DNA of 64,000 bases from UHGV virus genome UHGV-0178594; one strand, written 5' to 3'. A program made the position numbers and the translations under genes. The DNA is from a virus. A model generated the notes under the pieces. The model searched no databases. It was not told the origin of the DNA and was given only the letters and a program-made list of their open reading frames with translations. Every line of letters begins with the position of its first letter. Within the stretch, counting starts at the first letter, position 1. Below, one piece after another: positions 25,232-64,000 of the stretch.

Positions 25232-25233
25232 AC

Positions 25234-25665: not shown

Positions 25666-25683
25666 TTATTGAGGTAAAACGCT

Positions 25684-37725: not shown

Positions 37726-37730
37726 TGTGT

Positions 37731-37806: not shown

Positions 37807-37810
37807 AATT

Positions 37811-37897: not shown

Positions 37898-37902
37898 TAA
37901 AT

Positions 37903-40533: not shown

Positions 40534-40605
40534 GTTTGTTCCCTTTCTTGAAATTAGTTTTCTAACATATTTTATTAGTATGCAATTTCAATAAAAAGAC
40601 TCAGG

Positions 40606-49384: not shown

Positions 49385-49521
49385 AACCGTTAAATCCGCC
49401 TTAAGCGGTTCGGTTTGAGAGGGTATGGAGAATGTTATTTTCAGGGATGAACGACACTACCGTCAAAATCACATACTCACCATAGTTTGCCTACTTATTA
49501 ACCCATGAGCGGGAGAAATAT

Positions 49522-50007
49522 ATGGCAAACATTGAACCTCGCTGGCTTATTGAGGCCCGTAAAAATATTGGAGTCACCGAAATAAAAGGAGCGAAACACA
49601 ATCCAGAGATCGTTCAGTTCTGGCGGGATATTAAGCGCAGCGGAATTAAAGACGACGAAACGCCGTGGTGCGCTGCATTTGTTGGTGCAATGCTGGAACG
49701 TGTAGGTATCCGCTCAACAAGATTTGAGTCGGCAAAATCCTATCTGGATTGGGGCGAGAAATTAGATACACCGGCATACGGATGTATCGTTGTATTTACC
49801 CGCGTAGGCGGTGGGCACGTAGGCTTCGTTGTCGGACACCGCGCCAATGGCGATCTGCTTGTCTTGGGTGGGAACCAGGGGGATGCTGTTAATATTCGCG
49901 CATTCCCAACATCAAGAGTGTCTGGCTATCGCTGGCCTGCTGGCGAACCACGCAATACAGCTCTGTTACCAGTCGGAGACGCAGCAACCTCAACTAATGA
50001 GGCATAA
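49522..50007 (+). CDS. putative cysteine peptidase / cell-wall hydrolase (CHAP or NlpC/P60-like)
   Basis: Candidate catalytic Cys (TPWCAAFV) and His (GGGHVGFVV) spacing; 161 aa. Confidence 0.4.
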   Translation: MANIEPRWLIEARKNIGVTEIKGAKHNPEIVQFWRDIKRSGIKDDETPWCAAFVGAMLERVGIRSTRFESAKSYLDWGEKLDTPAYGCIVVFTRVGGGHVGFVVGHRANGDLLVLGGNQGDAVNIRAFPTSRVSGYRWPAGEPRNTALLPVGDAATSTNEA

Positions 50008-50030
50008 AAAAGCCCCGGCCAAGCCGGGGC
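50005..50030 (-). terminator. rho-independent terminator (minus-strand reading)
   Basis: gccccggc-caa-gccggggc hairpin next to A7 on plus strand. Confidence 0.6.
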
Positions 50031-50038
50031 ATCACACT

Positions 50039-50251
50039 TCAAGTTACGATCCAATCATTACCGACTGCATCCGCCGTCGATAAATCGACTTCCCGGATCT
50101 GGTATCCATTAATACAAAACCATCCAGTAGTAGAGCTATTATCAGGCCAGACCCATACACCAACACTCCATGCTTTACGGCGGCACACTTCAGCCTGTCC
50201 TTCCCTGATTTTTTTTACCGCCTGCATGATGTCCATCACTCGCCTCCCCAA
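50039..50251 (-). CDS. DUF2829-like small protein (separate ORF here, fused to antirepressor in left copy)
   Basis: ...EVCRRKAWSVGVWVWPD...DWIVT; 16-nt overlap with upstream antirepressor ORF. Confidence 0.45.
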   Translation of the reverse strand: MGRRVMDIMQAVKKIREGQAEVCRRKAWSVGVWVWPDNSSTTGWFCINGYQIREVDLSTADAVGNDWIVT

Positions 50252-50943
50252 CCGATTACCTGGAATTGCCCCATCCTTGGGTGATACCAGCGTTTTCCTC
50301 GGTGTTCAGCCTCCGACATCATCAGGGTAAAGGCATTCATGAAGGGAGATAAGGCCACAATAGTACGACGCGACAATACCCCCTCTGGCGTCAAAAACTC
50401 ATGCGTATCTGTGGGGATCCGGTAAGCGTTGACCAGGTTACGGCATTTGGCTTCAGTCAGGCCGCATTTCGCCGCCAGTTGGCGGTAGCCAATGTAGCCT
50501 TCTGGTATGTTGCCTTTCTTGATCTGCTCGACGGTTTCAGCGACCTGGCTAACCTTTGACTCAACAGCATGAAGCCGCTTTTGCTGCTGAACTGCATTCG
50601 CAGCCATTGCAGCGATCATCTCTATTTCGGTCAACGGCTGGCGTACTTGTTCTTCCAGTTCGCGCCAGCGGTCCACCAGCCGGGCGGTGAATTCGGGAGA
50701 GAGCTGCGCAACGACAATAATGCTGTCTCGTTTGCCTTGCTCGCCTTCGAAGACGTAAGCCTCAACGCCACGACGCAATCCTAAGTTATTGATTTTTTCG
50801 AAAACAGCCATTGGCGGTTTTCGGATAATGCTTCGAGCAACCATACGCTCAATACTACGTTTAACGTCAGAGTGTTGACTTCCCACCAGCTCCGCAATCT
50901 CAATGCTGGTCATTGATAGTTTTTCGAGAATGCAGATATCCAT
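50236..50943 (-). CDS. antirepressor-like protein (Rha/Bro-N-type)
   Basis: Paralog of 8832..9758 N-terminal 230 aa; ~90% identical DNA stretches. Confidence 0.6.
   Translation of the reverse strand: MDICILEKLSMTSIEIAELVGSQHSDVKRSIERMVARSIIRKPPMAVFEKINNLGLRRGVEAYVFEGEQGKRDSIIVVAQLSPEFTARLVDRWRELEEQVRQPLTEIEMIAAMAANAVQQQKRLHAVESKVSQVAETVEQIKKGNIPEGYIGYRQLAAKCGLTEAKCRNLVNAYRIPTDTHEFLTPEGVLSRRTIVALSPFMNAFTLMMSEAEHRGKRWYHPRMGQFQVIGWGGE
50390..50760. repeat. ~0.4-kb direct repeat (right copy) inside antirepressor gene
   Basis: See left copy; same orientation, ~41 kb apart. Confidence 0.7.
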
Positions 50944-51167
50944 CAGTGAGCCTCCGCAATGCCGGGATTGGTAATATTGCGATACCAGGGATTAGTGTTT
51001 GGTTGTGGGGAAGTAGAGAAACGACCAGTGAGAACGCCATACTGATCAGGGATCAGAGAACGGGCTTCTTTTTCAGTTGCGGCAATTGCGAAGTGATCAC
51101 AATGTTTTTGCAGGGAGTGGAAACGCCAGATGAATTCTGGACGTGAGCAATGATTGGCATTAACCAT
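50943..51167 (-). CDS. Icd-like small protein
   Basis: Paralog of 9758..9973; ATGA-coupled to antirepressor. Confidence 0.4.
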   Translation of the reverse strand: MVNANHCSRPEFIWRFHSLQKHCDHFAIAATEKEARSLIPDQYGVLTGRFSTSPQPNTNPWYRNITNPGIAEAH

Positions 51168-51494
51168 AGTTACGGCCTCGTAAGTTGATAAACAACCTGC
51201 GACCCGCTGTCAAACAGGTGGCAGGACGTGACAGGGTTGACAGACTGGCACTTACGAAACCAGCAGGCCGAAGCCTCCCCATCACGCCCCACCATAATTC
51301 GGGCGTAACGTGGTTTTACGGACACAAAAATACCGCAATATCGGAAATGTGCGGTTGTCCGCGTAAGTATTCAGGCTGTCAAACCTGGTCGCAGAATTTG
51401 CTACGACGGCATGAATATAAGCCTGAACATTAGAAAGATCAACAGAATTTTTATCAAATGCTGTTTTTTAGTGACAATGTAAATCATACATTCT

Positions 51495-51526
51495 TGATTA
51501 GAAACATCAATTTAATTTTCTAACAT
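51495..51526. promoter_or_regulatory. palindromic operator candidate (ATTAGAA-N14-TTCTAAC)
   Basis: Between RepL-like gene and icd-ant module. Confidence 0.5.
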
Positions 51527-51582
51527 ACATTTTCGAGCGATGAAATTCCCGCCGCACGGTTATTGTACAGTCAATCGCAACA

Positions 51583-52542
51583 TCATCCCCGAAAGCCCTC
51601 CGGAATTGACCAGTCTTCCCGGTCAAATTCAGACCGATAGCCACGCTGTATCATCAGGTCAAATGCTTCATTGATGGTTGCACATCCCTGGGAACCAGAA
51701 TAATCCATAGAGAAATCCAGGGCGCTGGATCGTTTGGGCTTATTCACTGTGGTAGCACTACGTAACCATGCAAATTTTTTTGCCAGTTTTTCAGCGGTAC
51801 GATACAGAGCCTGCCGTTTTGCGTACCCCTCGTCTGAACGACGCTTTGCAGCTCTCGCTTTTGCTGCCGCCAGGCAGTGGTTGGTATGTTCTTCCCTGAT
51901 TACTGTTTTTTTATCCAGCAAGCCATTATCCGCTTGAGAACTATCTGCTGGTGAAGCCTTTGGCTGAACCGCGCATGATCTTTCTCTTCTTTTGGCTATA
52001 GAGTGACTCTTATTTTCTATTGGCTGTTCATTTTGAACATGGGGGGGCTTGTTCAATTTGAACAGGGGGTTCCCAGTTTCAAAAAAATAACGAACCTTTG
52101 AAATCAACTGCTTAACCAGTTTTGTGGCGTTGGCAAATTTGATGCCCTGCTTACTCCCTATCTCCATTGCTACATGAATGAAGTGGAGAAATTGTGTTGT
52201 AAACCGGTACACGTTACACACCTGAGCATTGTTATTCGCTACCTGATGCTGCTTAACAAGCATTCCGCACTTCGTCGCTTCGGCAAATGCCCGGCGCACA
52301 GTAGAAATACTGCGTCCTGTAATCTCGGACATATCCGCATATGAGCGACGGATCATGTATTCATCGGTAGCTCCTGCCAGGTTGGCGAACTCGGCAATAA
52401 TGGCGCTATGTGAAGGGGAAAGAAAACCGCTATGACGAGCAAAAAAACTCAACTGATGACCTTTGATTTTTTTGTGGTATTCAGTGTTGTTTTTATACTC
52501 AGAAGTGTTGAAAGTAACTGAAACTGAATTTAAAATACTCAC
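51583..52542 (-). CDS. RepL-like replication protein (lytic replicon type)
   Basis: N-terminus MSILNSVSVTFNTSEY...; internal direct repeats suggest an origin inside the gene as in P1 repL/oriL. Confidence 0.45.
   Translation of the reverse strand: MSILNSVSVTFNTSEYKNNTEYHKKIKGHQLSFFARHSGFLSPSHSAIIAEFANLAGATDEYMIRRSYADMSEITGRSISTVRRAFAEATKCGMLVKQHQVANNNAQVCNVYRFTTQFLHFIHVAMEIGSKQGIKFANATKLVKQLISKVRYFFETGNPLFKLNKPPHVQNEQPIENKSHSIAKRRERSCAVQPKASPADSSQADNGLLDKKTVIREEHTNHCLAAAKARAAKRRSDEGYAKRQALYRTAEKLAKKFAWLRSATTVNKPKRSSALDFSMDYSGSQGCATINEAFDLMIQRGYRSEFDREDWSIPEGFRG
52026..52070. repeat. two ~20-bp direct repeats inside repL-like gene (candidate oriL iterons)
   Basis: GTTCATTTTGAACATGGGGGGG and GTTCAATTTGAACAGGGGGT. 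Confidence 0.35.
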
Positions 52543-52741
52543 CAGATAGTTCCGTGAAAAATCTATCTACCGTATAAATCTATGCCAGTGGATTTATACA
52601 CCCAAAAGCCGCTACTCAGCGGCTTTTGCTTTTTTTGGCAGTCGCTACCGGAGCAGTGACCGCGATCCTACTCGATCACGTGCCGTCGGATCAACAGTGT
52701 ATAAAAACACACTGTGTTAGAAAATTAAGCTAGCTTTTAGC

Positions 52742-53740
52742 TCACATCCTCTTAGACACAAAGATCAGCGGAGTCACCGTCTTGTTCTCTTTCACCGGTA
52801 TTTCTTGTTGTTTATTGGCTGATATTGGCAGACCATAAGTGGCATTAGCCCCCAGGGATTCAAGCATCGCCGCGACAATGCGTGCATCATCCTCTGACTG
52901 CATACGGCAGAGCGCCCGGCGCTGTTCTGCGCTGATAAAAACAGGCATTTCCTGGATAGCATCACGCAAAATACGGCGGCATTTCTTCGCGTTCTCCCCC
53001 TGGCTTTCCATCATCGCGGCCTGGTCGCGTAGTTTGTCGCGAAGCTGCATATTTTCCACTTCAAGATGTATCAGTTCCGACTCCAGAACTTCACGTTGTG
53101 CTGATTCGAATATGGCTTGCTGACTCTTCATTGCTGAAAAGTGGTGAACCAGATCCGTAGCAGCATTATCGGTAAAACCTTGTTCGATAAGTGCCGCATG
53201 AATCGCCGCGTCGCGTTCTTCTGCTGATTCAAGCATCAGGCTTTTCTTGTCGAGGCTGATATAGTTAGGCACAGTTACGTAATCAAAACCGTGAAAAGAC
53301 TTTACCAGGGATACAGAGTAATCTGGACCAGATGTAGCCCATGACCAACCACCTGCGCAAGAATTAATCATACCCTGAACAATACGTCCGGTGTCCGTAT
53401 CCAGTATTTCCTGTGTATGGGTAACAATGCCGTTGTCGTCAATTGAAATGTCGATAGTCCTGTTTGACGGCACGTTCTCCAATACAACAGGCTTCCCATC
53501 TACCATCACAACAGAGACTTCCGGCAAGTCCAGGCTTTTCGTTTTGTTATAGTGCATCGCCCGGCGACCATGACCATAATAACCATACATCTCACCCAGT
53601 GCGATACGCTCTTTTGTTTCTGGCGAGTTGAATGTGTCTCGTACCGACTGGATAACGTAATTGCGATTGTTCTGAGGTGTGTGTTTGCGGATTTTCTCTA
53701 CCAGGGAGAAGCGATCCGTAACGGTATTCAGTGATTGCAT
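52742..53740 (-). CDS. hypothetical virion-associated protein (possible prohead protease)
   Basis: 332-aa ORF directly downstream of and coupled to 561-aa portal-like ORF; assignment is positional. Confidence 0.35.
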   Translation of the reverse strand: MQSLNTVTDRFSLVEKIRKHTPQNNRNYVIQSVRDTFNSPETKERIALGEMYGYYGHGRRAMHYNKTKSLDLPEVSVVMVDGKPVVLENVPSNRTIDISIDDNGIVTHTQEILDTDTGRIVQGMINSCAGGWSWATSGPDYSVSLVKSFHGFDYVTVPNYISLDKKSLMLESAEERDAAIHAALIEQGFTDNAATDLVHHFSAMKSQQAIFESAQREVLESELIHLEVENMQLRDKLRDQAAMMESQGENAKKCRRILRDAIQEMPVFISAEQRRALCRMQSEDDARIVAAMLESLGANATYGLPISANKQQEIPVKENKTVTPLIFVSKRM

Positions 53741-53753
53741 TATTTCCCTCCGG

Positions 53754-55439
53754 TTAATTATTGCTCATCACAAATTTTGCAAAGTTGATTAATTGTTCTT
53801 GCGTCCAGTTTTCCGGATCGTCACCGGACGACAACGGCGCGGATTCGTACATACCATGCTCGTTGTTTTGCTCTGATTCATTCGCCTTAAACTCTTGGAT
53901 CATTACGTTGAGAGTGTCATCGTCGATACGAAGCTGTTCGGTGAACAGATAACGCATAAACGCGTCGCTACCCGCCAGTTTCGGGTTGTTCTGGATCTGG
54001 TCCATTATTTGCGAGATGACAGCTACGAAGTTGGCGCGCGCATCCAGCTCTCGGTTTTCCTCTTCCTGGATAGCTGTGTTCATTGAGTTGAATTGCACGT
54101 CATAAGGACGGTTTTTTTCGGTGTAAACCTTCCCGTATTTATAAGCGAGGTGAATGTCATGAAGCCGATAAATAGTCCGCTGGGCGGCCTGTCTGATCCA
54201 GTTCGCGCGTAAGGCGGCCTGGATAGCTGTTTGCTGCCAACCGCCTTCTCCAAGTCCACCACTCATCTGATCAGCCCAGCCAAGCATTGTTGCGTCAATA
54301 CCGAGGCTTGCCGCGAGCTGTCGGAGATGAAACATAACGTCTTCGATACCACTGATATCTGCGGGTATAGATTGCGTATCAATGGTGATCCCGTTCTTCC
54401 CATCCCCCATGACGGGTATCAGATGGTTAAGTACAGATGGGAGAGCATTAGAATTAATCGACCGTTGCGCTACGAGGTCGCTATGACGCTTCAGTGCCTG
54501 GCTGACCCCGCGCGTATAATTCGCCGCGTTTACCGGATCTATCGTGTTCGTTGTGAGTGCAATCAGGCGATCAATTTTTGCAGCGTTGTTTCGCGTTGCT
54601 TTCAGCGCAGCAAGCGCGGCACATAAATTCAGGTAGGGTTCATAACTGTATTCAAGAAACGACGTACCGTAGTTCTGCGTCTCCATTAACGGCTTGTCCT
54701 GCTGTTCACTAAGCAAGGAATAGCCTTTAGTGCCGTAAGTTACTGGCATTACTTTATGCTGAGGCGTCCAGTACGGGTTTTTCATGGAAACCAGATTCCA
54801 CGGTTCGGTTATAACTCTGCGCAAAGTATGCGTATCCAGAATATAATCACCGCTGAATCCGACAAGTTGGCTACCGCGATAAAACTCCTGAACGAAATGA
54901 GGGAGCGTGTAATAGCTCGACTCAATTCCAGTTATCCCCTTCCCTTGCTCTGCATATGGACGAATATAAGACACACCGAAAATAGCCATGATCATGGCCC
55001 ACGATGGCAGGCCATCATTAATCATTGAGCTTAAATCAGCGGTCAATTCCTCACATCGACTTACAGCCTCCTTATCCGCCCCATTTTTCGGAGAGAGAAT
55101 AAATGCGAGGCCTGTTTTTTTTGATGGAGCCAGAGAATGCGCAATGTGAATGTTTAATGCTGTGGAGATAGTCGGACTTTTCGCCATCGTCTCCAGTATG
55201 TTGTATTTTTGCAGGCGGTCACTCGGTAATTCTGCCGATATAGATACAGTATCCGCCGCGCTTGTCATGCCATCGCTATTGCTCCCCAGGATGCCAGGAC
55301 GCAAGGCGGACAGGCCAGAACGAGCAACGACGCTATGCCCGCTCGCAAATACGACCGGATCGGCAGGCGTAACATCACCACCGCTGAAGGCTTTCTTCAA
55401 TGCCGACAGAAAGCCCTTGTTTTTGTCTTTCGTTGCCAT
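53754..55439 (-). CDS. hypothetical virion protein (possible portal)
   Basis: 561-aa ORF downstream of dar-like operon; size consistent with portal; no motif confirmed. Confidence 0.35.
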   Translation of the reverse strand: MATKDKNKGFLSALKKAFSGGDVTPADPVVFASGHSVVARSGLSALRPGILGSNSDGMTSAADTVSISAELPSDRLQKYNILETMAKSPTISTALNIHIAHSLAPSKKTGLAFILSPKNGADKEAVSRCEELTADLSSMINDGLPSWAMIMAIFGVSYIRPYAEQGKGITGIESSYYTLPHFVQEFYRGSQLVGFSGDYILDTHTLRRVITEPWNLVSMKNPYWTPQHKVMPVTYGTKGYSLLSEQQDKPLMETQNYGTSFLEYSYEPYLNLCAALAALKATRNNAAKIDRLIALTTNTIDPVNAANYTRGVSQALKRHSDLVAQRSINSNALPSVLNHLIPVMGDGKNGITIDTQSIPADISGIEDVMFHLRQLAASLGIDATMLGWADQMSGGLGEGGWQQTAIQAALRANWIRQAAQRTIYRLHDIHLAYKYGKVYTEKNRPYDVQFNSMNTAIQEEENRELDARANFVAVISQIMDQIQNNPKLAGSDAFMRYLFTEQLRIDDDTLNVMIQEFKANESEQNNEHGMYESAPLSSGDDPENWTQEQLINFAKFVMSNN

Positions 55440-55671
55440 GATTCACCGCAAAAGGTTTCCGATTTCGTGGCAGCTTATCCAGTGTGTGATTTCATCAGTA
55501 ATTTTTCGTTGTTTTCACCATATGCTGATGTTTTTTCATATGCGGAAATGCTTTTCCAAAAACGCAACCACCAAACAAGGAAGTTATGTTTATAAACATT
55601 TTTGTTGTGTTTTATATCTTTTGTGTTAGTATTCTTATCGCCCATGATGGATAAATTGCATAAGGAAACTT

Positions 55672-55854
55672 GTGAAGTATTCAGAGTTCAAACGCTGGTT
55701 AATCCAGCAAGGGGCAGAGTTCAGGAAAGCGCCTGGTGGCGGCAGTCATCAGAAAGTGAACCTGAACGGAAAGCGGTCGGTTTTCCCGGACCACGGTTCA
55801 AAGGAAATGCCTGAACCGCTACGCAAGAAAATAATGAAGGACCTGGGGCTTTAA
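55672..55854 (+). CDS. hicA: HicA toxin (mRNA interferase)
   Basis: MKYSEFKRWLIQQGAEFRK...GSHQK...LRKKIMKDLGL closely matches HicA family. Confidence 0.8.
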   Translation: MKYSEFKRWLIQQGAEFRKAPGGGSHQKVNLNGKRSVFPDHGSKEMPEPLRKKIMKDLGL

Positions 55855-55884
55855 GCCCCAGCCTTTTTCACTAGGAGCTTCTCT

Positions 55885-56316
55885 ATGTTTAACTATCCGG
55901 TAAAACTGGAGCGCGACGACAAAACCGGCGCGTATGTCGTATCATGCCGCGACCTACCATTGTTTAATTCCGTGGGTGACTCAGTTGAAGAAGCGTTGCT
56001 TGAGGCTGGTTATGGATTGGTCGCAGCGGTTGCGATTGAGATTGAAGAACGCCGACCTGTTCCCACTGGTAGCGAGCCAAAAGAAGGTGAGTACGTTGTC
56101 TCTTTGCCAGTGCTACCAGCAATGAAGGCTGCACTCCACAACGCGATGATAGAAACCGGCACACGCAAAGCAGAGTTGGCGCGCAAACTCGGAAAAAATG
56201 GAACACAGATTGATCGTCTTCTCGACGTCGAACATTCATCGAAAGTTGAAACTGTCGAGCTGGCACTGCATCAACTGAATAAAAATATCGTCGTATCTGT
56301 CACACCAATGCGGTGA
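55885..56316 (+). CDS. hicB: HicB antitoxin
   Basis: 143 aa directly downstream of hicA; N-terminal RNase H-like segment (YPV.LERDDKTGAYVVSCRDLP) plus C-terminal HTH-like region. Confidence 0.75.
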   Translation: MFNYPVKLERDDKTGAYVVSCRDLPLFNSVGDSVEEALLEAGYGLVAAVAIEIEERRPVPTGSEPKEGEYVVSLPVLPAMKAALHNAMIETGTRKAELARKLGKNGTQIDRLLDVEHSSKVETVELALHQLNKNIVVSVTPMR

Positions 56317-56427
56317 CTGCTCCCCGCCCTGCTGGGCGAGGATTTACGGGGTATTTGTTAAAAACGCTCTATTCAAAGAAGAAATACCGAATCCCCCGGA
56401 GGTTATCCGGGGTGTCCGGTCGCCAGG

Positions 56428-57813
56428 TCAGGTTTCCAGCCCAAAATCGCTTTGTTCTGTTTTGGCTTCGAACATCGTGAAGTTAAGCCCTTTCCCCTCT
56501 CCATGTTCCAGTTCAATCTCATTAGAAACAGCGGTCAAAATACTACGTAGATCGACATCTCCACCGCCGAACATATCGCCCAACGCCTGCTGTTTATGAA
56601 TCAGTTCGTCGTTGATTTTTTGTGCCATTTTTTTGAATGCAGCCCCCATGCGCTTCGCGCTTCGATTATTTGCCACGATGAATAGCGCCAACGCCTCAGC
56701 TTCCGGCGTGCTATCACCGAAGAGTCCGCGCTGGGCTATCACCTCTTCCACTGCCTGACCGTTGTCTTTGGCTTCACGAACAAGGTTAATCGCGTCCTGG
56801 AGTGCTGCTATAGCCTGTTTATCCAGACCGTTCACCTGCTCTATACCATCAACCAGACCAGTTACAGCATCATGATGTGCATCGCCAGAAATCGACTGCA
56901 TTTGCGCAAAGTCACTGGCCGCTGTATTAAGCGCGGTCAGGATATTGCGCATTTCCGGATCCGGTTCTTCCGCCACAAGCCGAACAAGTCGCTCATCCTT
57001 ATAGGCTTTGGCAAAAATCGCATTCTGAATGCGATCGATAAGCTGTTTCGTTGGACGTCCATCGGCTGTAAGCAAACCTGCCGTCGCGGTATCGCCTATT
57101 TCGTGCAAAAACGCACGAATAAACGCATCATTGGACCGCGCCAGTAGATTTCCATCATCTGAAGGATTAAATAGCGCCATGACGCTCTCAGTGAGAAATT
57201 GCGCATCCGCATACGCTTTCTCACTTGCAGCCATCTCTTGCAGATCGCTGATGTTTGAGTCGCGTGCAAATTGAGCACGATCAACGTCAGTGAGGCGCTC
57301 GCGAACCAGTACAGGCATCACCATTGCCCTGACGTCTTCGGGATTAAGGCCAAACTCTTTAGCGTGATCGATAAGATATTGTCGGTAATCTTCAGCCTGC
57401 CCTTGTTCATAAGCACGCCAGATTCCCATGCTTCGACCATTACCAGACTCAACGACATTATCCGGACCAACAATCGGGGAACCATGACTACTCATACCCG
57501 AATCAGTGAGTTGTGCCGGGCGTAAATTGGCGGCGATACGGTTAACCTGGAGCTTACTTGACAGTCGGGTGCGATCGCGAGGCTGGAGTTCCTCCGGAAA
57601 TGACGGATTTATACTTCCGTCCAGGTTGTTAGAAATGATGAGCTTTTTGGCATCAATAACCTTGAACGCTGTTTTAACTTCGTCGCCTTTGCTGGTGACG
57701 ACATAGCTGCTACGCCCCAACTTCGTCTCTTGCTTTTCAAGAGATGACACCACAGCGATAACCCCCTCAATGTTCGCTGCGGCCAGAAGTGCTGATGTTA
57801 CGTTTTGAGTCAC
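56428..57813 (-). CDS. dar-operon protein (DdrB-like position)
   Basis: 461-aa ORF last in lydA-lydB-hdf-darA-like operon; positional assignment only. Confidence 0.4.
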   Translation of the reverse strand: MTQNVTSALLAAANIEGVIAVVSSLEKQETKLGRSSYVVTSKGDEVKTAFKVIDAKKLIISNNLDGSINPSFPEELQPRDRTRLSSKLQVNRIAANLRPAQLTDSGMSSHGSPIVGPDNVVESGNGRSMGIWRAYEQGQAEDYRQYLIDHAKEFGLNPEDVRAMVMPVLVRERLTDVDRAQFARDSNISDLQEMAASEKAYADAQFLTESVMALFNPSDDGNLLARSNDAFIRAFLHEIGDTATAGLLTADGRPTKQLIDRIQNAIFAKAYKDERLVRLVAEEPDPEMRNILTALNTAASDFAQMQSISGDAHHDAVTGLVDGIEQVNGLDKQAIAALQDAINLVREAKDNGQAVEEVIAQRGLFGDSTPEAEALALFIVANNRSAKRMGAAFKKMAQKINDELIHKQQALGDMFGGGDVDLRSILTAVSNEIELEHGEGKGLNFTMFEAKTEQSDFGLET

Positions 57814-57904
57814 AATTAACCACCTTTCTGTAAAAAAGGCAGTGTAAAAAGTGTGTTATTTCGGTGACTATTTTAAGAAGAAAGGGGCATTTTGCCCCTC
57901 TCTT

Positions 57905-58276
57905 TTACGCTGCATACCCGTTAGCTGAAACCCAGTTTACGGTCTGTTCTTTGGCCTGGTCGAGTGTCAAAAATTCACCAACATATTGAGATATGCCTCT
58001 CAAAGCATCGATGAACTCCATTTGTGATGATTTAGTAAATGCACCACTAAGGAAGTCAGCAACAATTTTAGGCGTTTCTTGTGCCGCCGGTTGCACTTCC
58101 TCTTCTTGCTGTTGTGCTGGATTATTCGATGAACCAAGCCCCAGCTTCATCATCACTTCAACTATCCGCACGCCAATAGTGACACGTTGTACCGCAGTCG
58201 CGCTTTTTTGCGCTGACATCAGCTCAGACAGTTCTTTGCCTAAGCTAAGGCGCTCCGTTACTGATATTTTCACCAC
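57905..58276 (-). CDS. DdrA-like small protein (positional)
   Basis: 123-aa ORF coupled to DarA-like gene. Confidence 0.4.
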   Translation of the reverse strand: MVKISVTERLSLGKELSELMSAQKSATAVQRVTIGVRIVEVMMKLGLGSSNNPAQQQEEEVQPAAQETPKIVADFLSGAFTKSSQMEFIDALRGISQYVGEFLTLDQAKEQTVNWVSANGYAA

Positions 58277-60222
58277 ACGCCCCCTTGTTGTATCTCTGCC
58301 AGAATGTTGATCAGGTGATCGGCTGCCGCACCAACAAGTGACTCGTTCTCATCATATCGACCTGCGTTGATAAGAACATTAGCTGCCTCCTGAATGCGAT
58401 CAAACTCCGCTCTAATCACCGTCAAATCACGGGACGTAAACTGCAACGGCACGGATTTCAGATATTCCAGCGCACTGTCCGCCTCCTGATCAGCCTCACT
58501 AACTACTGGCCCATCTGAACCTGTATCAGACTCTTGGGGGGATTCAGGTTCAGACTCAGGTTCTGGTTCTTGTACTGCTTCCGGTGCCTGATCTAATGTC
58601 TGTTCAGCTTCGACTACTTCTGATTGATTCTGAAGCGCGTCATAGATATCCATTATAAAAAGGTTCTCCCCATCTCCAAGTGGATAAGCGACGTTAGGAA
58701 ATGCTTTGCGGAAGAGGATTTTTATCTGCGCCTTAAAGGTTTTCAAGTCGCTTCCAAACAGATCAACGTAGCCATCAATATGGTTCGACATACTGGACGC
58801 AACCAATTCGCCTGCAATCTCTTTCAATTCATCGTCACCAGGGAGATATAGCAACTCGTACTGACTGACTTCTTCGTCTGTCAGTTTGCGGTCATACGTA
58901 ATGATTCCGTGACGAGCATATTCGTAATACGGATCAGCCTGATCAGGACGGTCAAGTACAGCTTTATTTCCTTCAGGAACCGCACCAACACCCGCCGGGC
59001 GAGATTGGAGCGCATAGCGATATTTACCAACCTCCAGGGGATCAGGATGTGATGCTGGTTGTGGCTCCTGTTCAGGCTGCGGCTGATCAGTTGGCTCAGG
59101 CTGGCCCGGCAACACATCCACTTTGTATTGATCAGCATTATGTTCACGATAGGCTTTAAGTAATTTGGTTGCAGCGTCCGCTGAACTCCCACCTTTAACA
59201 GCACTGACATCAATACTGAAATTGCCTTCTGGTGCCTCAATCGTGACAAAGCTATCACTGCCTGACGTGACATACTTAACTACAGCACCATTATCCAGCG
59301 TTGTTTGGCCTTCTGTAGCAAGATTATGTTTTATGTGTCGCAGTTGATCATTGAAGGCACGCTCTTTAGTTCCTTGGCTCTTAGCTGACAATAAATTATC
59401 GCGCTTAGCCTGCAATTCCGCGTTAAGGGCTTTTTGTGCGTCTAATTTATTCTGCATATCATTGAGTGTTGAGCGTTTCTCTGCCAGCCCCCGCTGTGCG
59501 TCTTCAACCTGCTCAATCAGCACAGAACGTTCTTCTGCCAGCTTGTCGGCTTCATTGAGATACCCCTCAATATCAGCCTTCATTTTGTCCTGGCGCTCCT
59601 TTGCTTTTTTGAATTTTGCACTGTTACGCTCAATGAGGTTAGAAAGCGCCTGACACACCTGGCTCAGAGATACATCACGCCCACCGATTGGCGCAACAAC
59701 ATGCGTAACGTTTCTTTTGTTAAGAAGAAACTGAAACGCAACCAGCTCGTCATCCCCTTTAATTCTTGTGCCGTCTGCGGTTGGAGAATGGAAAATTATG
59801 CTTGTCGTTTGTCCATCGGTTAGAGGTATTTGTGCTGTTACAACAGGGATATTAGCAACCCGGCGCACGCGCCCAATGATTGCCCCACCGATACTATTAC
59901 GTCCGTCTTCATATTCACCTGCCTCATCCGTACCCGCAGCAATGTCAGTGCCATTCAGGCCGCGATTAAGCGCCCGGACAAATGCTCGCATTGTTTGCGC
60001 TAACCGCAATTTTGTTGTGGTTATAGCTTCGAACATTGCCTCATTGGTAGTTACCAAAATTTCGTTGCCCATATAGGCCAGCTCGATATCTTCCAGCGTC
60101 GCAGGCTCGATAAGTAAATCATCCTCGGTGATATCTTCCGCCACCCAACGATTAGGCGTATATCCAGTGAGCGTATCTGCAAAAGTGGACTGGATATTTA
60201 TTCGAATAGGTTTCTTTATCAT
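58270..60222 (-). CDS. DarA-like capsid-internal anti-restriction protein
   Basis: 650 aa (P1 DarA ~639 aa as I recall); operon order lydA-lydB-hdf-darA mirrors P1. Confidence 0.5.
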   Translation of the reverse strand: MIKKPIRINIQSTFADTLTGYTPNRWVAEDITEDDLLIEPATLEDIELAYMGNEILVTTNEAMFEAITTTKLRLAQTMRAFVRALNRGLNGTDIAAGTDEAGEYEDGRNSIGGAIIGRVRRVANIPVVTAQIPLTDGQTTSIIFHSPTADGTRIKGDDELVAFQFLLNKRNVTHVVAPIGGRDVSLSQVCQALSNLIERNSAKFKKAKERQDKMKADIEGYLNEADKLAEERSVLIEQVEDAQRGLAEKRSTLNDMQNKLDAQKALNAELQAKRDNLLSAKSQGTKERAFNDQLRHIKHNLATEGQTTLDNGAVVKYVTSGSDSFVTIEAPEGNFSIDVSAVKGGSSADAATKLLKAYREHNADQYKVDVLPGQPEPTDQPQPEQEPQPASHPDPLEVGKYRYALQSRPAGVGAVPEGNKAVLDRPDQADPYYEYARHGIITYDRKLTDEEVSQYELLYLPGDDELKEIAGELVASSMSNHIDGYVDLFGSDLKTFKAQIKILFRKAFPNVAYPLGDGENLFIMDIYDALQNQSEVVEAEQTLDQAPEAVQEPEPESEPESPQESDTGSDGPVVSEADQEADSALEYLKSVPLQFTSRDLTVIRAEFDRIQEAANVLINAGRYDENESLVGAAADHLINILAEIQQGGVW

Positions 60223-60836
60223 GCATCTTCCTCCAGGCGCGCTATTTCTTCTTTCAATACGCGAGTTTTCGCCAGTTCCTGCGCCATCTCGGTTCTAATG
60301 ATTTCAGTTTCTCTTGTTGCGCGGTCTGAATTACCTTGCACCTGATTTAATTTTTCTTTGGCCCTTTCAATATCCTCGCGGATCGCATCGCGAGATTCCT
60401 TTGCCTCTGCTAGTTTCTGCGCATTGGACTTAACGCCTTTTATTTTCTTATTCCCATCATCAATATCTTTCGCCGCACGAGCTAACTTACGCGCCAATGA
60501 TTTCTGAAATGATGATGCGCCTTTATTAAATAAAGCAGCCAGTGATTGCCCTAAAGCCATCAGCGTTTTAACTGGCTTGAAAGGAACAATTTTTCCGTTC
60601 AGTTTTACACCAGAAATATCACCAGTATCATTAACCTGAACGTCCATCGTCTGCTCATCGATTCCGATAAGGGTAAACGTGCGCGTCATGATCCCGTCTT
60701 TCTTCCTGCCATTACTGGCGGGGATCACCCTCGCTATCTTGTAGCCTCCTTTACCGATTTCTTTGACGAGTTTTGCCAGCCCCTTTTCGTTTAACTCATC
60801 ATAATTAAGAAGAACATAATTAGACTTATTTGACAT
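60219..60836 (-). CDS. Hdf-like protein (positional)
   Basis: ORF between lydB-like and darA-like genes; start taken at internal ATG (MSNKSNY). Confidence 0.4.
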   Translation of the reverse strand: MSNKSNYVLLNYDELNEKGLAKLVKEIGKGGYKIARVIPASNGRKKDGIMTRTFTLIGIDEQTMDVQVNDTGDISGVKLNGKIVPFKPVKTLMALGQSLAALFNKGASSFQKSLARKLARAAKDIDDGNKKIKGVKSNAQKLAEAKESRDAIREDIERAKEKLNQVQGNSDRATRETEIIRTEMAQELAKTRVLKEEIARLEEDA

Positions 60837-61272
60837 TCCAGTCTCCTTCACACTTTTCAATCATAAACTGGCGTTCTATGCAGTCATTGATAGGGAAAAT
60901 GCGATAAAGCGGATTCAGGCGGCAATTACCGTTAGTCAATGTGACCTTTAGATCCCACTTCGCTGGCTCAAGATATTTCGTGTCGATGAGCAAATATTCT
61001 TCTCTCTCACCGCGTTTTGATGCGTCAACTGGTCTTGTTTTCCCCGAAATAACCACAGATGGATTTTTCAAGTCCTGCAACCAATATTCGATTTGTGCAT
61101 TGCTTACCCAGCTTCGCTTAACGCGAAGCGACACAGGAAACGCTATAGCAGACTCTTTCACTACAGCTTCGCCAATGCTCAAAATATCAACACTCTTGCG
61201 ACGAAATAAGAAACGGTCAATAACGGCAACAAATGCCATGATAAAAATGAAATAATTTCCAAAGTCACCCAT
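60826..61272 (-). CDS. LydB-like antiholin (positional)
   Basis: 148 aa, ATGA-coupled downstream of holin-like gene. Confidence 0.45.
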   Translation of the reverse strand: MGDFGNYFIFIMAFVAVIDRFLFRRKSVDILSIGEAVVKESAIAFPVSLRVKRSWVSNAQIEYWLQDLKNPSVVISGKTRPVDASKRGEREEYLLIDTKYLEPAKWDLKVTLTNGNCRLNPLYRIFPINDCIERQFMIEKCEGDWNVK

Positions 61273-61598
61273 TACTTCTCTCCACCTTTTCCCCCACTCG
61301 CTATTACGCTTAAGAGATTCAAGACGTTACTAGCTCTGGACTTCAAGCCCTGTAAAATTTCACTTCCGTTGTTACTGGCAATCAGAACAACGCAGTAAAT
61401 GATGCCTTCCGGCCATTCATAGCTATCAGCCACCCAAAACCCCGCAAGCCCGGCAGTTACCGCAGTAAACAATTCACTCGCGAGGTTGAGCAGTGACGCA
61501 GAAATGCGCCCGTCTCTAACTCCGAGAAGGAATACGCCGGTTCCACTCAGCAGGGATGTTATGACTGCTACAGCCAGATTTTCATAATCTGCAAACAT
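61272..61598 (-). CDS. holin (LydA-like)
   Basis: 108 aa with hydrophobic helices AVAVITSLLSGTGVFLLGV, LASELFTAVTAGLAGFWV, IIYCVVLIA. Confidence 0.5.
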   Translation of the reverse strand: MFADYENLAVAVITSLLSGTGVFLLGVRDGRISASLLNLASELFTAVTAGLAGFWVADSYEWPEGIIYCVVLIASNNGSEILQGLKSRASNVLNLLSVIASGGKGGEK

Positions 61599-62058
61599 AC
61601 CCCTCCAGAAATGACGTTTAACGCGGCTTCAACTTATCCAGTTTGTTATTTTCCGACTAAATGCCATTCACACAAAATGGATGCATATGATGGCCCGGTG
61701 GTCCGTAAACCTCGTCACTCAGAGCGTGGAGGATGCCAAATTCGCGTATCAACAAAATGGTCCAAACACGGCTTTAAAGAGAAATACGCTTGAATGCGCA
61801 AGATGTGAGCTGATTCTTGAGGACAAAATGATGACATGTGAGTCTTCACAAGCGTCATTCAGTGAATATAATGCCCCCCTCTCAGATACCACTAACTGAG
61901 TGTTCATTTTGCCCGCCGTCATTGACTGGACGGCGGCCTTTTTGTACCAAAGGATTGTATTACTAAAAAAGGTCACAAAAGCACTCACTAATAAAGCCCT
62001 CAACAAAAGAGGGCTTGAAATATCAAAAAAGCAGTGCTGATTGGATTGTTATGATTGT

Positions 62059-62481
62059 TTATACAGGCATCTCAGGCCATGAGATATCTGCATCAACAGA
62101 AGTGTCAACTCTATTAAGAAGAACTCTATACCTCTTTAACTTTGTCAACATTTCTATTTCCTCATCAGTGGCAATATCCATATCAACAGCATCCTGAAGC
62201 GTTGATATTTTTATGCTCACATCATTCATAAGACTACTTTTGGTGTTTTCAGCAATGCTGACTCTATCCTCTAAGCTCATAGGTTGTGGGTCAGATAACA
62301 TTGGATAACCATCGCCATTTGCAATTATTATTTTCCCATTGCCATACCCTGATAACAATTCATCATATAAGTCATCAGGTATATGTACAGTATCGGACGG
62401 CCATGAACCGTTTTTATCGTAATCTTCTTTTAGACTGTCGTCGTAGAAACCACCAGTCTCTTTGCTGTAATACTTTGCCAT
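62059..62481 (-). CDS. tail fibre assembly protein (Tfa / gene U-like)
   Basis: MAKYYSKETGGFYDD... N-terminus and C-terminal ...DISWPEMPV typical of Tfa chaperones; directly downstream of tail fibre gene. Confidence 0.7.
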   Translation of the reverse strand: MAKYYSKETGGFYDDSLKEDYDKNGSWPSDTVHIPDDLYDELLSGYGNGKIIIANGDGYPMLSDPQPMSLEDRVSIAENTKSSLMNDVSIKISTLQDAVDMDIATDEEIEMLTKLKRYRVLLNRVDTSVDADISWPEMPV

Positions 62482-62512
62482 TTAAGCACCTTCATTCTAA
62501 TTAACTATATTT

Positions 62513-64000
62513 TTAATAACCATAAGCAACATACTGTGCATATATTTTATCAGTGGAGCTACTTTTCACTGTAAAACCAGTGGCTGAGTGGTTGTATGTA
62601 TAAAGAATTGAATTGACAGCATTCCCGCTGTGAGGCGAAATCACAACTACCGCACACGCCTCAGGAAAAGTAGTCGGAAAGTTAACCACGCTTCCTGGAG
62701 TTAAATTTGTTATAAACCCCCACTGCATCATCACCCTAGTTGATGTATCCTTATGCCATCCATGAATGTTGGCATATGCTGTGTTTTTAGCCTGATATTT
62801 CGTGTTGAAATTACTATAGTTACCAGGGGTAATCTGACCAGCGGCAGATAAATTCCCCATAACCCTTACATGACCATCAGCACGTCCTAATTCTACGCGA
62901 CCATCACCGCCATCTATCTTTAATGGAGTGTAAACGACATCACCATTAACATTTTGCCCAGTGGTTGATATCTGGAAACTATATCCAGTATTAGTTATTA
63001 GGAATCCATAGTTATTATTATAAGTTAGGCGTATAGCATTTTGGCTGCTGGATATAATTTCACCGGTAACAGTACCACCTGTTGTTGGTAACGCACCAAC
63101 ATGACTTGCCGTTAATGTGATGTCTGCAGAACCATCAAAAGCCACTCCACTTATTTTTCTGGCAGTTTTTAACTTTGTCGCTGTAGCTGCATTACCACTT
63201 GTATTTTGATTTCCGGCAATATTAACGCCCGGAAGATTGATGTTTGCTGTACCATCAAACGAAACCCCGCCTATTGTGCGCGCTGTTTGTAGTTTCGTTG
63301 CAGTTGCAGCATTGCCGGTAGTGCTCTGATTACCTGTTTTATTCACGCCCGGCAGGTCGATGTTTGCGGTGCCATTAAATGAAACACCACCAATAGTTCT
63401 TGCCGTTTGTAATTTCGTTGCAGACGCCGCGTTTCCGGTTGTGTTCTGGTTGCCTGTTGTATTTACACCAGGGATGGAATCCTTCGATGTGTAGACCTGC
63501 GCCCACTCAGACCAACTGGCTGTATCAGTATCTCGTCGCGAACGTACATGTACAGGCGCATGAGCACCACTTGTACCGCTCCAACCTATGAACAACTCGC
63601 CTTCACCAGCGGCAGTTGCGCCCTTAAGATGAAGCACATTCCCGTAAGCAGAAGGATAGCCGTTGTTGTACGCCTCATACATCTGCAATCCAGCAGCAGC
63701 ACCTTGCGTTGTACCGGTGAGCGCAGTAACACGCCCTCTGGACGTAATTGTTGGTATCGAAATGTTCGCAGAACCATCAAAATTAACACCGTTGATTGTG
63801 CGGGCTGTTTGCAGTTTTGTAGCGGTTGCAGCATTACCTGTTGTGTTCTGGTTACCGGCAATGTTCACACCCGGCAGGTTGATATTGGCGCTGCCATCAA
63901 ATGACACTCCGCCGATTGTGCGTGCCGTCTGAAGTTTCGTTGCGGTTGCAGCATTGCCGGTAGTGCTCTGATTACCTGTTTTATTCACGCCTGGCAGGTC
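62513..64000 (-). CDS. tail fibre protein (partial; likely continues beyond right edge)
   Basis: Repeated ~40-aa unit GNQ.TTGNAATATKLQTARTIGGVSFDG.ANI.LPGVN; ORF track start at 63988 may be internal. Confidence 0.7.
   Translation of the reverse strand, partial: DLPGVNKTGNQSTTGNAATATKLQTARTIGGVSFDGSANINLPGVNIAGNQNTTGNAATATKLQTARTINGVNFDGSANISIPTITSRGRVTALTGTTQGAAAGLQMYEAYNNGYPSAYGNVLHLKGATAAGEGELFIGWSGTSGAHAPVHVRSRRDTDTASWSEWAQVYTSKDSIPGVNTTGNQNTTGNAASATKLQTARTIGGVSFNGTANIDLPGVNKTGNQSTTGNAATATKLQTARTIGGVSFDGTANINLPGVNIAGNQNTSGNAATATKLKTARKISGVAFDGSADITLTASHVGALPTTGGTVTGEIISSSQNAIRLTYNNNYGFLITNTGYSFQISTTGQNVNGDVVYTPLKIDGGDGRVELGRADGHVRVMGNLSAAGQITPGNYSNFNTKYQAKNTAYANIHGWHKDTSTRVMMQWGFITNLTPGSVVNFPTTFPEACAVVVISPHSGNAVNSILYTYNHSATGFTVKSSSTDKIYAQYVAYGY
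63118..64000. repeat. intragenic ~120-bp tandem repeats in tail fibre gene
   Basis: At least five copies of the 40-codon unit at DNA and protein level. Confidence 0.6.

Follow-up and report, generated by a model that had tools for sequence, protein, structure and literature searches.

The 64,000-nucleotide stretch of the virus genome UHGV-0178594 that we analyzed (hereafter referred to as the window) contains two small genes, hicA and hicB, which lie in this order on the plus strand, 30 nt apart, all of their neighbors being on the minus strand (Table 1). HicA scored 38.4 bits against the Pfam HicA_toxin profile (PF07927; cut-off 27, E 1.3e-9), and its residues 1-60 aligned with residues 1-57 of 6HPB_A, covering the full length (E 1e-12). 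HicB scored 49.3 bits against HicB-like_2 (PF15970; cut-off 30, E 5.8e-13), and its residues 3-135 aligned with 6HPB_B/6U0I (E 3e-15). The earlier note had called a HicA/HicB pair, placed on the opposite strand between the dar genes and the virion genes; the profile matches and full-length alignments bear out the call, and the gene map agrees with the placement, ddrB flanking the pair on one side and portal and pro on the other.

Table 1. Features of the hicAB region and of the other toxin-antitoxin loci in the window
Feature	Position	Strand	Basis and remarks
higB	2692-2994	+	Pfam HigB-like_toxin, E 1.2e-34
higA	3066-3404	+	HTH_3 (E for higA and the second HTH gene, 7e-11 and 3.8e-5)
second HTH gene of the higBA locus (2692-3820)	3440-3820	+	HTH_3
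phd	26146-26367	+	Pfam PhdYeFM_antitox, E 2.8e-13
doc	26367-26747	+	Pfam Fic/DOC, E 2e-9
pro	52742-53740	-	ORF map
portal (prt)	53754-55439	-	left neighbor, divergent from hicA; 'portal protein, similar to P1 prt' in D6 and relatives
putative late promoter of portal-pro	55474-55491	-	AATCACACACTGGATAAG; just inside the left cargo junction
AT-rich region upstream of hicA	55495-55671	+	cargo-specific; GC 32-38%; homology to hicAB-less relatives ends at 55494/55495
putative sigma-70 promoter of hicAB	55605-55610 and 55624-55632	+	TTGTGT, 16-nt spacer, extended -10 TGtTAGTAT
hicA	55672-55854	+	60 aa; GTG start; AGGA 5 nt upstream (55663-55666); ORF and Pfam HicA_toxin
hairpin over the hicA stop codon	55843-55861	+	8-bp, GC-rich, then CCTTTTT; terminator-like match; -18.1 kcal/mol, z -3.7
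hicB	55885-56316	+	143 aa; ATG start; AGGAG 7 nt upstream; Pfam HicB-like_2
HicB N-terminal partial RNase-H-like domain	residues ~1-75		Pfam, alignment, AlphaFold2 model
HicB C-terminal Xre-type HTH	residues ~76-130		alignment to 6HPB_B through residue 135, AlphaFold2 model
hairpin directly 3' of the hicB stop codon	56321-56342	+	-14.6 kcal/mol, z -3.1; weak U-tract
strong hairpin just downstream of the ddrB stop codon	56386-56420	-	followed by a T-rich run; -23.6 kcal/mol, z -4.0
ddrB, truncated	56428-57813	-	461 aa; ddrB-ParB domain, E 2.5e-40
ddrA	57905-58276	-	ORF map
darA	58270-60222	-	ORF map

Architecture and expression signals of the hicAB pair

The size of HicA falls within the 50-100 aa of dsRBD-type HicA proteins, the assignment itself being by profile and alignment. 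The His of its G24-S25-H26 stretch aligned with the His of 6HPB_A and was invariant in all six homologous cassettes; we take it to be the equivalent of the catalytic His23 of E. coli and His24 of B. pseudomallei, in a G-x-H motif. The AlphaFold2 model of HicB (pLDDT 80) superimposed on 6HPB_B with TM scores of 0.86/0.89 and an rmsd of 2.0 Å. Its N-terminal domain was modeled as beta-beta-beta-alpha-beta, with a pLDDT of ~90 over residues 1-80, and matched the N-domain of B. pseudomallei HicB as well in the structure comparison; its C-terminus was modeled, at a lower pLDDT of 60-75, as four helices that match Xre/HipB-type HTH structures. PHROG placed HicA in PHROG 353 ('toxin') and HicB in a HicB-like family, both of the 'moron' category. 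Both genes are under strong purifying selection, with dN/dS values of 0.02-0.10 for hicA and 0.02-0.04 for hicB against the Enterobacter, Klebsiella, Citrobacter and PY54 copies. As judged from these comparisons, the window hicAB is a genuine, intact HicA/HicB pair and unexceptional within its well-known family; as hicA comes first and HicB has a C-terminal HTH, it has the layout of a canonical class-3 type II toxin-antitoxin operon and looks functional.

The GTG start of hicA is weak and the AGGAG-ATG combination of hicB is strong. The putative sigma-70 promoter in the cargo-specific region upstream of hicA was not called by a strict promoter scan; its extended -10 element is kept in the Enterobacter, Klebsiella and Citrobacter copies, in an alignment read by eye. 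Neither an inverted-repeat search nor footprinting across four cassettes revealed a conserved palindromic operator upstream of hicA, the inverted repeats present being weak and not conserved; no candidate operator for HicB emerged from them. No known RNA family was found above chance in the intergenic regions.

Three hairpins accompany the genes. The 3' arm of the one over the hicA stop codon was invariant in six of six homologous cassettes and its T-run was missing in PY54; among these six cassettes we found no compensatory changes, the arms being either invariant or broken by single changes. This hairpin is possibly an attenuator or an RNA-stability element between hicA and hicB. A conserved, terminator-like hairpin at this position is odd for a toxin-antitoxin operon, which needs an excess of antitoxin. 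The hairpin behind hicB likely marks the end of the hicAB transcript. The one behind ddrB, the inner stem of which was a terminator-like hit for the minus strand, is likely the terminator of the dar late operon, shielding hicAB from antisense read-through. During lytic growth, the HicA:HicB ratio may be tuned by the hairpin over the hicA stop codon or by late dar transcription converging on the cassette.

Two exact copies of ACTGGATAAG are present in the window, each 34 nt upstream of an ATG, that of portal and that of lydA (motif at 61633-61642); they correspond in position to LPpro and LPdar of P1. The cassette thus occupies the boundary of two late transcription units, where the dar operon ends and portal-pro starts, and consequently splits no operon. 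The earlier description of hicAB as interrupting a leftward morphogenesis block is correct in that all neighbors run leftward, but it needs to be qualified, as no operon is split and the putative late promoter of portal-pro is kept. Because this boundary is a permissive turnover spot, morphogenesis is probably unaffected.

Distribution in D6-like phage-plasmids and the cassette junctions

Positions 45000-64000 of the window had 88.6% identity to phage D6 over 83%, by which the element classifies as a D6-like (P1g2) phage-plasmid and not as P1 proper. The earlier note proposed P1-like references for comparison; the actual relatives are D6-like. Among 5,426 complete E. coli genomes, hicAB was present in 15, in every case on a D6-like plasmid and never on the chromosome; all 15 plasmids are circular and 89-95 kb in size. 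The portal-ddrB region was found in 99 E. coli genomes, so that hicAB occupies 15 of these 99. The other 85 E. coli records had a query coverage below 80%, and ddrB and portal were 64 bp apart in every low-coverage, hicAB-less E. coli record listed or opened; junction contents are those of the listed records, a set from which 40 of the E. coli matches and 69 of those in PLSDB are absent. The 25 informative D6-like loci of IMG/VR comprised 15 empty sites, six with a long ddrB and hxr, one of the D6 type and three of the hicAB type. Phage D6 itself has orf23/orf24 and no hicAB at this junction; these two genes matched only DUF4145, below threshold, and PHROGs without a known function. An empty site next to a 99-100% identical portal gene was seen in AP027414 and L038. 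In the sublineage to which the window itself belongs (flank identity of 96% or more), and which has been sampled from humans, dogs, chicken, monkey and wastewater, hicAB is present on 10 of 11 identified E. coli plasmids.

These distributions bear on the possibility, named in the earlier note as one that would make the locus unremarkable, that P1-like or D6-like elements have hicAB here as a conserved core component. The 10 of 11 plasmids of the sublineage would fit, but tblastn with HicA and HicB gave no match in P1, P7 or any other deposited P1-like phage, D6 lacks the pair, and so do ~85% of the E. coli D6-like plasmids and 22 of the 25 informative IMG/VR loci, leaving this possibility a negligible weight. 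That the window copy is a decayed, non-functional remnant is also very improbable. Decay has indeed occurred in one sublineage, in which an IS605-family TnpB element is inserted at codon 5 of hicA and the dN/dS of hicA exceeds 1; the toxin is therefore dispensable there. The window ORFs, however, are full length in comparison with the crystal-structure proteins, retain the presumed catalytic His, both Shine-Dalgarno sequences and both start codons, and belong to genes with dN/dS values of 0.02-0.1. hicAB is accordingly a self-contained accessory cassette (moron) of one D6-like sublineage, polymorphic in its presence and absence and furnished with putative expression signals of its own.

The left junction, 55494/55495, is common to three different cargo states. 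The right junction, the breakpoint of which was mapped against AP027414, lies at DdrB residue ~450; the window ddrB is homologous to the long DdrB (1013-1048 aa in relatives, 995 aa in P1) only up to about this residue. Its last 11 codons (56428-56463) derive from the cargo block, and the adjoining segment, 56464 to ~56525, is a divergent ddrB patch that was transferred along with the cargo. From these alignments, the cassette is best described as a replacement of the 3' half of ddrB and of hxr, not as a clean insertion. A transposon-like insertion with target duplication was rejected, since the junctions have no direct repeats and the right edge is a homologous, divergent ddrB patch. These same features point to acquisition by recombination: a block of ~1 kb (55495 to ~56463) would have come in and displaced hxr together with the 3' half of a ddrB of the long P1 type.

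Three further candidates were discarded. An insertion scar in the form of a duplicated ddrB 3'-end remnant to the left of the cassette was hinted at by a weak MAFFT alignment, but local alignment found nothing. HicB is not the counterpart of P1 hxr ('homolog of Xre'), as tblastn gave no matches in any P1-like phage and BLASTP no similarity; the true Hxr homolog is a 97-aa acidic protein encoded beside the long ddrB in other D6-like elements (L017, L035). Plasmids of the CP085065 type seemed to carry hicAB in a different slot, but an 80-nt ddrB remnant after hicB and intermediates in E. marmotae identify it as the same junction; in these plasmids ddrB was replaced by an HTH gene and a JukA-like gene, and a second, divergent ddrB was regained.

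We thus read the locus as a complete class-3 hicAB operon that is carried as an accessory moron by one D6-like sublineage and was acquired by recombination at the dar/portal boundary, and we assign this reading a probability of roughly 0.85.

Relatives of the cassette and the other toxin-antitoxin pairs

The closest relatives of the cassette reside on N15-like phage-plasmids (the ORF58 locus of Yersinia phage PY54, vB_YenS-P840 and MStein-2023a) and on 47-50 kb Enterobacter/Citrobacter plasmids, where HicB is 75-94% and HicA 82-93% identical to the window proteins; the HicB identity is 94% in Enterobacter phage MStein-2023a and 75% in PY54 and vB_YenS-P840. These cassettes share with the window copy the GTG start, the Shine-Dalgarno sequences, the stop-codon hairpin, the extended -10 element and the orientation opposite to the neighboring genes, whereas their backbone is unrelated and their site lies between a DNA methyltransferase gene with small ORFs and antA/dinI. 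In PY54, hicA itself has no annotation. Conjugative Klebsiella plasmids of 330-375 kb carry hicAB DNA of 80% identity. As the closest relatives are found on unrelated elements, namely N15/PY54-like linear phage-plasmids and conjugative plasmids, their distribution points to horizontal exchange.

The chromosomal HicAB of E. coli K-12 (6HPB; class 3 of Gerdes 2024, PMC10865869) has the same gene order, a HicA of ~58-60 aa with the conserved His and, like the window, a HicB of ~140 aa that combines an N-terminal partial RNase-H fold with a C-terminal HTH. The two HicB proteins are only ~30% identical, however, and have diverged too far for their DNA to match; neither an operator nor a two-promoter layout like that of K-12 is recognizable in the window, the copy of which is on a phage-plasmid and, unlike that of K-12, has the conserved hairpin over the hicA stop codon. 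The equivalent position in P1, the distal dar-operon end (ddrB-hxr-IS1), is likewise a site of foreign DNA (IS1, isaA/isaB). In P1, however, DdrB is retained at its full 995 aa, including the predicted metallopeptidase part, and its gene is followed by hxr and IS1; P1 has no HicAB homolog and does not have its portal gene adjacent to ddrB.

The presence of phd-doc and higBA on the same element, also claimed at the start, was confirmed by Pfam. Like hicAB, the phd-doc of P1 and the higBA of D6 are type II pairs on the same low-copy phage-plasmid, and higBA is similarly placed inside a late-gene block, opposite to the flanking tail genes; their toxins belong to families other than that of HicA, Doc being a Fic/Doc kinase and HigB having a RelE fold. 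Matches to phd-doc were found in 1248 of 5426 E. coli genomes. A Hig-type pair occupied the higBA site in almost all of 40 D6-like relatives sampled from 102 matching E. coli genomes, three having a different gene. Both pairs are near-universal in the D6-like group (PMC6799933, together with the counts of this survey), in contrast to hicAB at ~15%; only hicAB is therefore a lineage-specific extra. That three such pairs reflect strong maintenance or defense pressure is plausible.

Possible roles of hicAB

By homology to E. coli K-12 HicAB, HicA would be a small, ribosome-independent mRNA interferase of the dsRBD fold with His26 as its catalytic residue. HicB would neutralize it by binding through the partial RNase-H-like domain, and a dimer of the HicB HTH probably represses the cassette's own promoter. 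Loss of the plasmid, its displacement by an incompatible relative, or the shut-off of transcription by an infecting phage would halt HicB synthesis; proteolysis of HicB should then free HicA, leading to mRNA cleavage and arrest of the cell. The most likely benefit of hicAB would be addiction combined with competition, in which it keeps the element from being lost and from being displaced by relatives of the same replicon type that lack hicAB and are far commoner. The idea of competition comes from the fact that hicAB-positive and hicAB-negative relatives have a common replicon, rep_cluster_1704. Phage defense would be a close second.

Published work is divided on what classical HicAB systems are for (PMC10865869 versus PMC12894663). 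It is conceivable, though on balance unlikely, that hicAB serves mainly in abortive infection from the plasmid prophage and that the 3' end of the dar operon is a defense hotspot: a phage would shut off host and prophage transcription, HicB would decay, and HicA would degrade mRNAs and abort the infection. Consistent with this, nearby junctions in relatives hold bona fide or candidate defense genes that are oriented, like hicAB, opposite to the dar genes. The Shedu gene sduA lies between ddrA and ddrB in L035 (PADLOC E 5e-81, Pfam SduA_C E 5e-31) and, judged by matching gene spacing, in L037 too, and an HTH gene and a JukA-like DUF3944 protein gene (PADLOC E 3e-71) adjoin hicAB in E. marmotae and in CP085065-type plasmids. 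Gerdes (2024) argues from genomic context for a phage-defense role of HicA modules (PMC10865869), and the genes exchanged by phage-plasmids are enriched in defense genes (PMC10879196). However, the association comes from different junctions and lineages; PADLOC matched no HicAB defense model, with nothing for HicA and only PDC-M64C (E 0.003) for the C-terminal part of HicB; and the sole directly tested prophage HicAB that we found in the literature, that of P. putida, is a working toxin-antitoxin system and yet contributed to neither stability nor phage defense (PMC12894663).

This precedent implies that the module may bring no benefit, and beside phd-doc and higBA a third addiction module may be redundant. 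We nevertheless doubt that hicAB is a purely selfish passenger, which is hard to lose and recombines between mobile elements without benefit to phage-plasmid or host. Its rarity (15/99), its spread over unrelated plasmid and phage backbones, its decay by IS insertion and truncation in one sublineage and the lack of a phenotype in P. putida (PMC12894663) would all suit such a passenger. The strong purifying selection on both genes in the Enterobacter, Klebsiella, Citrobacter and Yersinia copies speaks against it, with the proviso that selfish addiction alone can cause selection of this kind, as does the wide range of sources of the carrier sublineage. An equally tentative proposal is that the distal dar operon, with its ddrA/ddrB and ddrB/portal junctions, is a dedicated exchange hotspot for opposite-strand toxin-antitoxin and defense cassettes (hicAB, Shedu, JukA-like and unknown genes), swapped with N15-like phage-plasmids and conjugative plasmids, hicAB being an inter-element weapon. 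As such, it may protect its carrier from displacement or superinfection by the commoner relatives that share its replicon type but lack hicAB, or may abort infections by other phages.

For addiction and competition, which we consider the most likely benefit, as well as for defense, the plasmids with hicAB, with an empty site and with an IS-disrupted hicA form a natural, near-isogenic set that could be used to tell the three apart. The practical value of the finding is modest. It documents one D6-like sublineage with a third, horizontally acquired toxin-antitoxin module, the acquisition of which is mapped to the base pair; it marks the end of the dar operon as a site of turnover with at least five alternative contents; and it adds a further case of gene flow among two unrelated phage-plasmid families and conjugative plasmids.

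The hicAB operon and its putative signals

The earlier note placed a HicA/HicB pair at this site, and both ORFs lie exactly there (Table). Their identity was upheld: HicA matched Pfam HicA_toxin with 38.4 bits (curated cut-off, 27) and HicB matched HicB-like_2 with 49.3 bits (curated cut-off, 30), and the proteins aligned end to end with the E. coli K-12 HicA-HicB crystal structure, 6HPB (E values of 1e-12 and 3e-15, respectively). His26 of HicA, in a G-S-H motif, was aligned with the catalytic histidine of 6HPB HicA. An AlphaFold2 model of HicB (pLDDT 80), including its C-terminal Xre-type helix-turn-helix, superposed on 6HPB chain B with TM 0.86–0.89 and an rmsd of 2.0 Å. Under Gerdes' classification (PMC10865869), this is a classical class-3 operon. 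Across the Enterobacter, Klebsiella, Citrobacter and PY54 copies, dN/dS is 0.02–0.10, a sign of strong purifying selection on both genes. The family is thoroughly known and this member of it uncharacterised; PGAP already assigns the HicA and HicB labels in relatives.

The AT-rich stretch ahead of hicA (177 bp, 32–38% GC) is shared, from 55599 on, with the Enterobacter, Klebsiella and Citrobacter copies. This conserved portion contains a putative promoter, TTGTGT followed after 16 nt by an extended −10 element (TGtTAGTAT or TGtTATTAT), which a strict promoter scan did not call; we infer the expression signals of hicAB from these features. An inverted-repeat search and the cassette alignment revealed no conserved palindromic operator upstream of hicA. 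An 8-bp GC-rich hairpin overlaps hicA at its stop codon, with CCTTTTT after it. Across the six cassettes compared (from E. coli, Enterobacter, Klebsiella, Citrobacter and Yersinia phage PY54), the 3′ arm of the hairpin never varies, and no compensatory changes were found. The hairpin might attenuate transcription or stabilise the RNA; a terminator-like element separating toxin and antitoxin genes is unexpected.

Features of the window and of compared loci (L numbers) in relatives and other elements
Feature	Position	Strand	Details
hicA	55672-55854	+	60 aa; GTG start; AGGA 5 nt before start
hicB	55885-56316	+	143 aa; ATG start; AGGAG 7 nt before start
hicA-stop hairpin	55843-55861	+	T5 run; −18.1 kcal/mol, z −3.7
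ACTGGATAAG, copy 1	55474-55483	-	ahead of portal
ACTGGATAAG, copy 2	61633-61642	-	ahead of lydA
Hairpin 3′ of ddrB	56386-56420	-	T-rich tail; −23.6 kcal/mol, z −4.0
pro, portal, ddrB, ddrA, darA		-	ddrB-ParB domain in ddrB; DarA_N and DarA_C domains in darA
ddrB	56428-57813	-	461 aa
ddrB, L017	2880-5921		
ddrB, L035	2917-6063		
ddrB, P1 (NC_005856)	24542-27529		995 aa
higB-higA and second HTH gene	2692-3820	+	
phd-doc	26146-26747		
Tad2-like gene	35923-36498	-	191 aa
tRNA cluster	36951-37979	-	five genes
icd/ant-type copies	9068-9770; 50236-50943	-	~75% DNA identity
hicA, PY54 (L009)	3777-3959 (record 40367-40549)		GTG start
TnpB-associated, L006	7860-9239		
TnpB-associated, L014	3888-5267		
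TnpB-associated, L013	3906-5453		
TnpB-associated, L010	4982-6367		
HTH regulator and DUF3944 genes, L006	10017-11245		in place of ddrB; PADLOC JukA E 3e-71
HTH regulator and DUF3944 genes, L014	6048-7276		in place of ddrB; PADLOC JukA E 3e-71
SSB, SduA and partner ORF between ddrA and ddrB, L035	1417-2886		

The D6-like element and its late operons

The element is a D6-like phage-plasmid, of group P1g2 of Pfeifer and Rocha (PMC10879196). The earlier note looked to P1-like references, and the element is D6-like rather than P1: phage D6 is 88.6% identical across 83% of 45000–64000, where P1 matches in short patches only. Near-identical relatives are circular E. coli plasmids of 89–94 kb (99.3–99.9% across this region), typed as non-mobilizable in PLSDB where typing was read. 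The two further TA loci that had been named, higBA and phd-doc, are both present. A published analysis of D6-like elements gives these two as the post-segregational killing systems of the group and does not mention hicAB (PMC6799933). Of 40 D6-like relatives sampled from 102 matching genomes, almost all have a Hig-type pair in the higBA slot, and phd-doc has matches in 1,248 E. coli genomes; among the three pairs, only hicAB is lineage-specific.

The higBA locus, ordered toxin, HigA and a second, 126-aa HTH protein, is opposite in strand to the surrounding tail genes, as hicAB is to its own neighbours; relatives carry alternative Hig alleles in this slot, and a few have a 'stationary phase growth adaptation protein' instead. 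Elsewhere, the window encodes a 191-aa protein that ends in a Tad2-like (Thoeris anti-defence 2) domain (Pfam E 4.4e-10) and may be an anti-defence protein; PGAP names its orthologue 'MW1434 family type I TA system toxin'. Adjoining it are genes for tRNAs Met(CAT), which PGAP calls Ile in a relative, Ser(TGA), Thr(TGT), Tyr(GTA) and Arg(TCT). Two diverged copies of an icd/ant-type (Rha-family antirepressor) module suggest two immunity or antirepressor regions.

The earlier note described hicAB as interrupting a morphogenesis block. Its opposite-strand placement was borne out, and the split operon was not: hicAB appears to lie between two late transcription units, neither of which is broken. 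The exact decamer ACTGGATAAG has two copies in the window, each with a start codon 34 nt downstream, at positions corresponding to the annotated P1 late promoters LPpro (portal copy) and LPdar (lydA copy). With up to one mismatch, it has 12 matches against 2.9 expected. We regard it as a candidate D6-type late-promoter element, which differs from the P1 −22 box, AAGTGAyT. The left cassette junction is directly upstream of the portal copy, and on the other side ddrB is followed, on the minus strand, by a strong hairpin that has a T-rich tail. Placement between two late units would explain why this junction tolerates such varied content.

Gain, spread and decay of the cassette

Whether hicAB is a conserved core feature at this position had been raised as a question; it is accessory in D6-like elements. 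In D6 itself, portal and ddrB are separated by two unrelated genes on the minus strand, orf23 and orf24; orf24 weakly matches DUF4145. The portal-ddrB region occurs in 99 of 5,426 complete E. coli genomes, plasmid-borne in every case, and only 15 of the 99 have hicAB, even at blastn sensitivity, at which no chromosomal copy was found among the 5,426. The remaining 85 records have less than 80% query coverage, and in every one listed or opened the ddrB stop is 64 bp from the portal ATG. Among about 25 informative D6-like loci in IMG/VR, 15 junctions are empty, 6 are of a long ddrB type, 1 is D6-type and 3 are hicAB-type. The six long-ddrB loci have ddrB, then a 97-aa Hxr homologue, then an opposite-strand HTH gene; their DdrB (1013–1048 aa) has a HEIGHH motif and 44% full-length identity to P1 DdrB.

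The earlier note spoke of an inserted module; the cassette is a replacement. On the left, identity to pEC361_3, a very close empty relative, ends at 55494/55495, 55 bp upstream of the portal ATG, a junction common to D6 and to 83%-identical empty plasmids. On the right, alignment with other ddrB alleles resumes at ~56464 (DdrB residue ~450), and near-identity to pEC361_3 returns from ~56525. Since homology to the long DdrB proteins ends at this right junction, at residue ~450, the cassette stands in place of hxr and the 3′ half of a P1-type ddrB, and the truncated ddrB takes its last 11 codons from the cassette. It arrived by recombination along with a short divergent ddrB patch; transposition was rejected as the entry route, there being no target duplication. 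In P1 and some D6-like relatives, DdrB is ~1000 aa, with a HEIGHH metallopeptidase-like motif in its C-terminal half, and is followed by Hxr, whereas most D6-like elements, including D6, lack that half. Because of this loss, their Dar anti-restriction system may be functionally unlike that of P1.

No hicAB was found in P1-like phages by HicA and HicB homologue search. Among phages, the nearest homologues are carried by N15-like linear phage-plasmids: Enterobacter phage MStein-2023a (HicB 94% and HicA 93% identical) and Yersinia phages PY54 and vB_YenS-P840 (75% and 82%). The cassette is also found in 47–50 kb Enterobacter and Citrobacter plasmids with PY54-like gene order and within a TA cluster of conjugative Klebsiella plasmids (330–375 kb); more broadly, HicB family members are common on both chromosomes and plasmids of Enterobacterales. 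In the PY54 reference genome, HicB (ORF58) is annotated and the adjoining intact 60-aa HicA is not.

A sister lineage of D6-like plasmids, from E. marmotae and, in five cases, E. coli, has an IS200/IS605-type TnpB element at hicA codon 5, whose insertion took away the hicA promoter and start. The disrupted hicA has a Gly-to-Trp change in the conserved C-terminal LGL and a dN/dS above 1 against the window copy; one plasmid of this lineage has lost hicA and has a truncated hicB. The insertion also created a fused 68-aa ORF. TnpB lies immediately downstream of hicB in Enterobacter plasmid pJBIWA007_2, and its association with the cassette thus has two independent settings. In the disrupted lineage, ddrB is replaced by an HTH gene and a JukA-like DUF3944 gene, with an 80-nt ddrB remnant after hicB; no JukB partner was seen in L006 or L014, and the E. 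coli plasmids have regained a divergent ddrB adjoining portal.

The dar operon has a second such junction for cargo in its ddrA-ddrB interval, where two IMG/VR relatives, L035 and L037, have ~1.6 kb of extra DNA. The more distant D6-like L035 (3300025735_000041) has an SSB gene there, along with an opposite-strand homologue of the Shedu nuclease SduA (PADLOC E 5e-81) and a 100-aa partner ORF; L037, with the same gene spacing, probably has the same content.

Possible roles of hicAB

By homology (PMC10865869 and work cited there), HicA would be a ribosome-independent mRNA interferase, and HicB would neutralise it via its N-terminal domain and repress transcription via its HTH; loss of HicB synthesis would free HicA. 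Among three roles, ranked without strong separation, we place addiction and competition at the head: replicon cluster 1704 is common to hicAB-positive and hicAB-negative relatives, which should therefore exclude each other. Abortive-infection defence comes next, in keeping with the defence genes adjoining in relatives and with Gerdes' genomic-context argument (PMC10865869). The pair might, lastly, be a selfish passenger, as the one directly tested prophage HicAB found in the literature is a working TA system with no stability or defence phenotype (PMC12894663). What the locus adds is small: a mapped turnover site and a natural series of plasmids that are hicAB-positive, empty or IS-disrupted.
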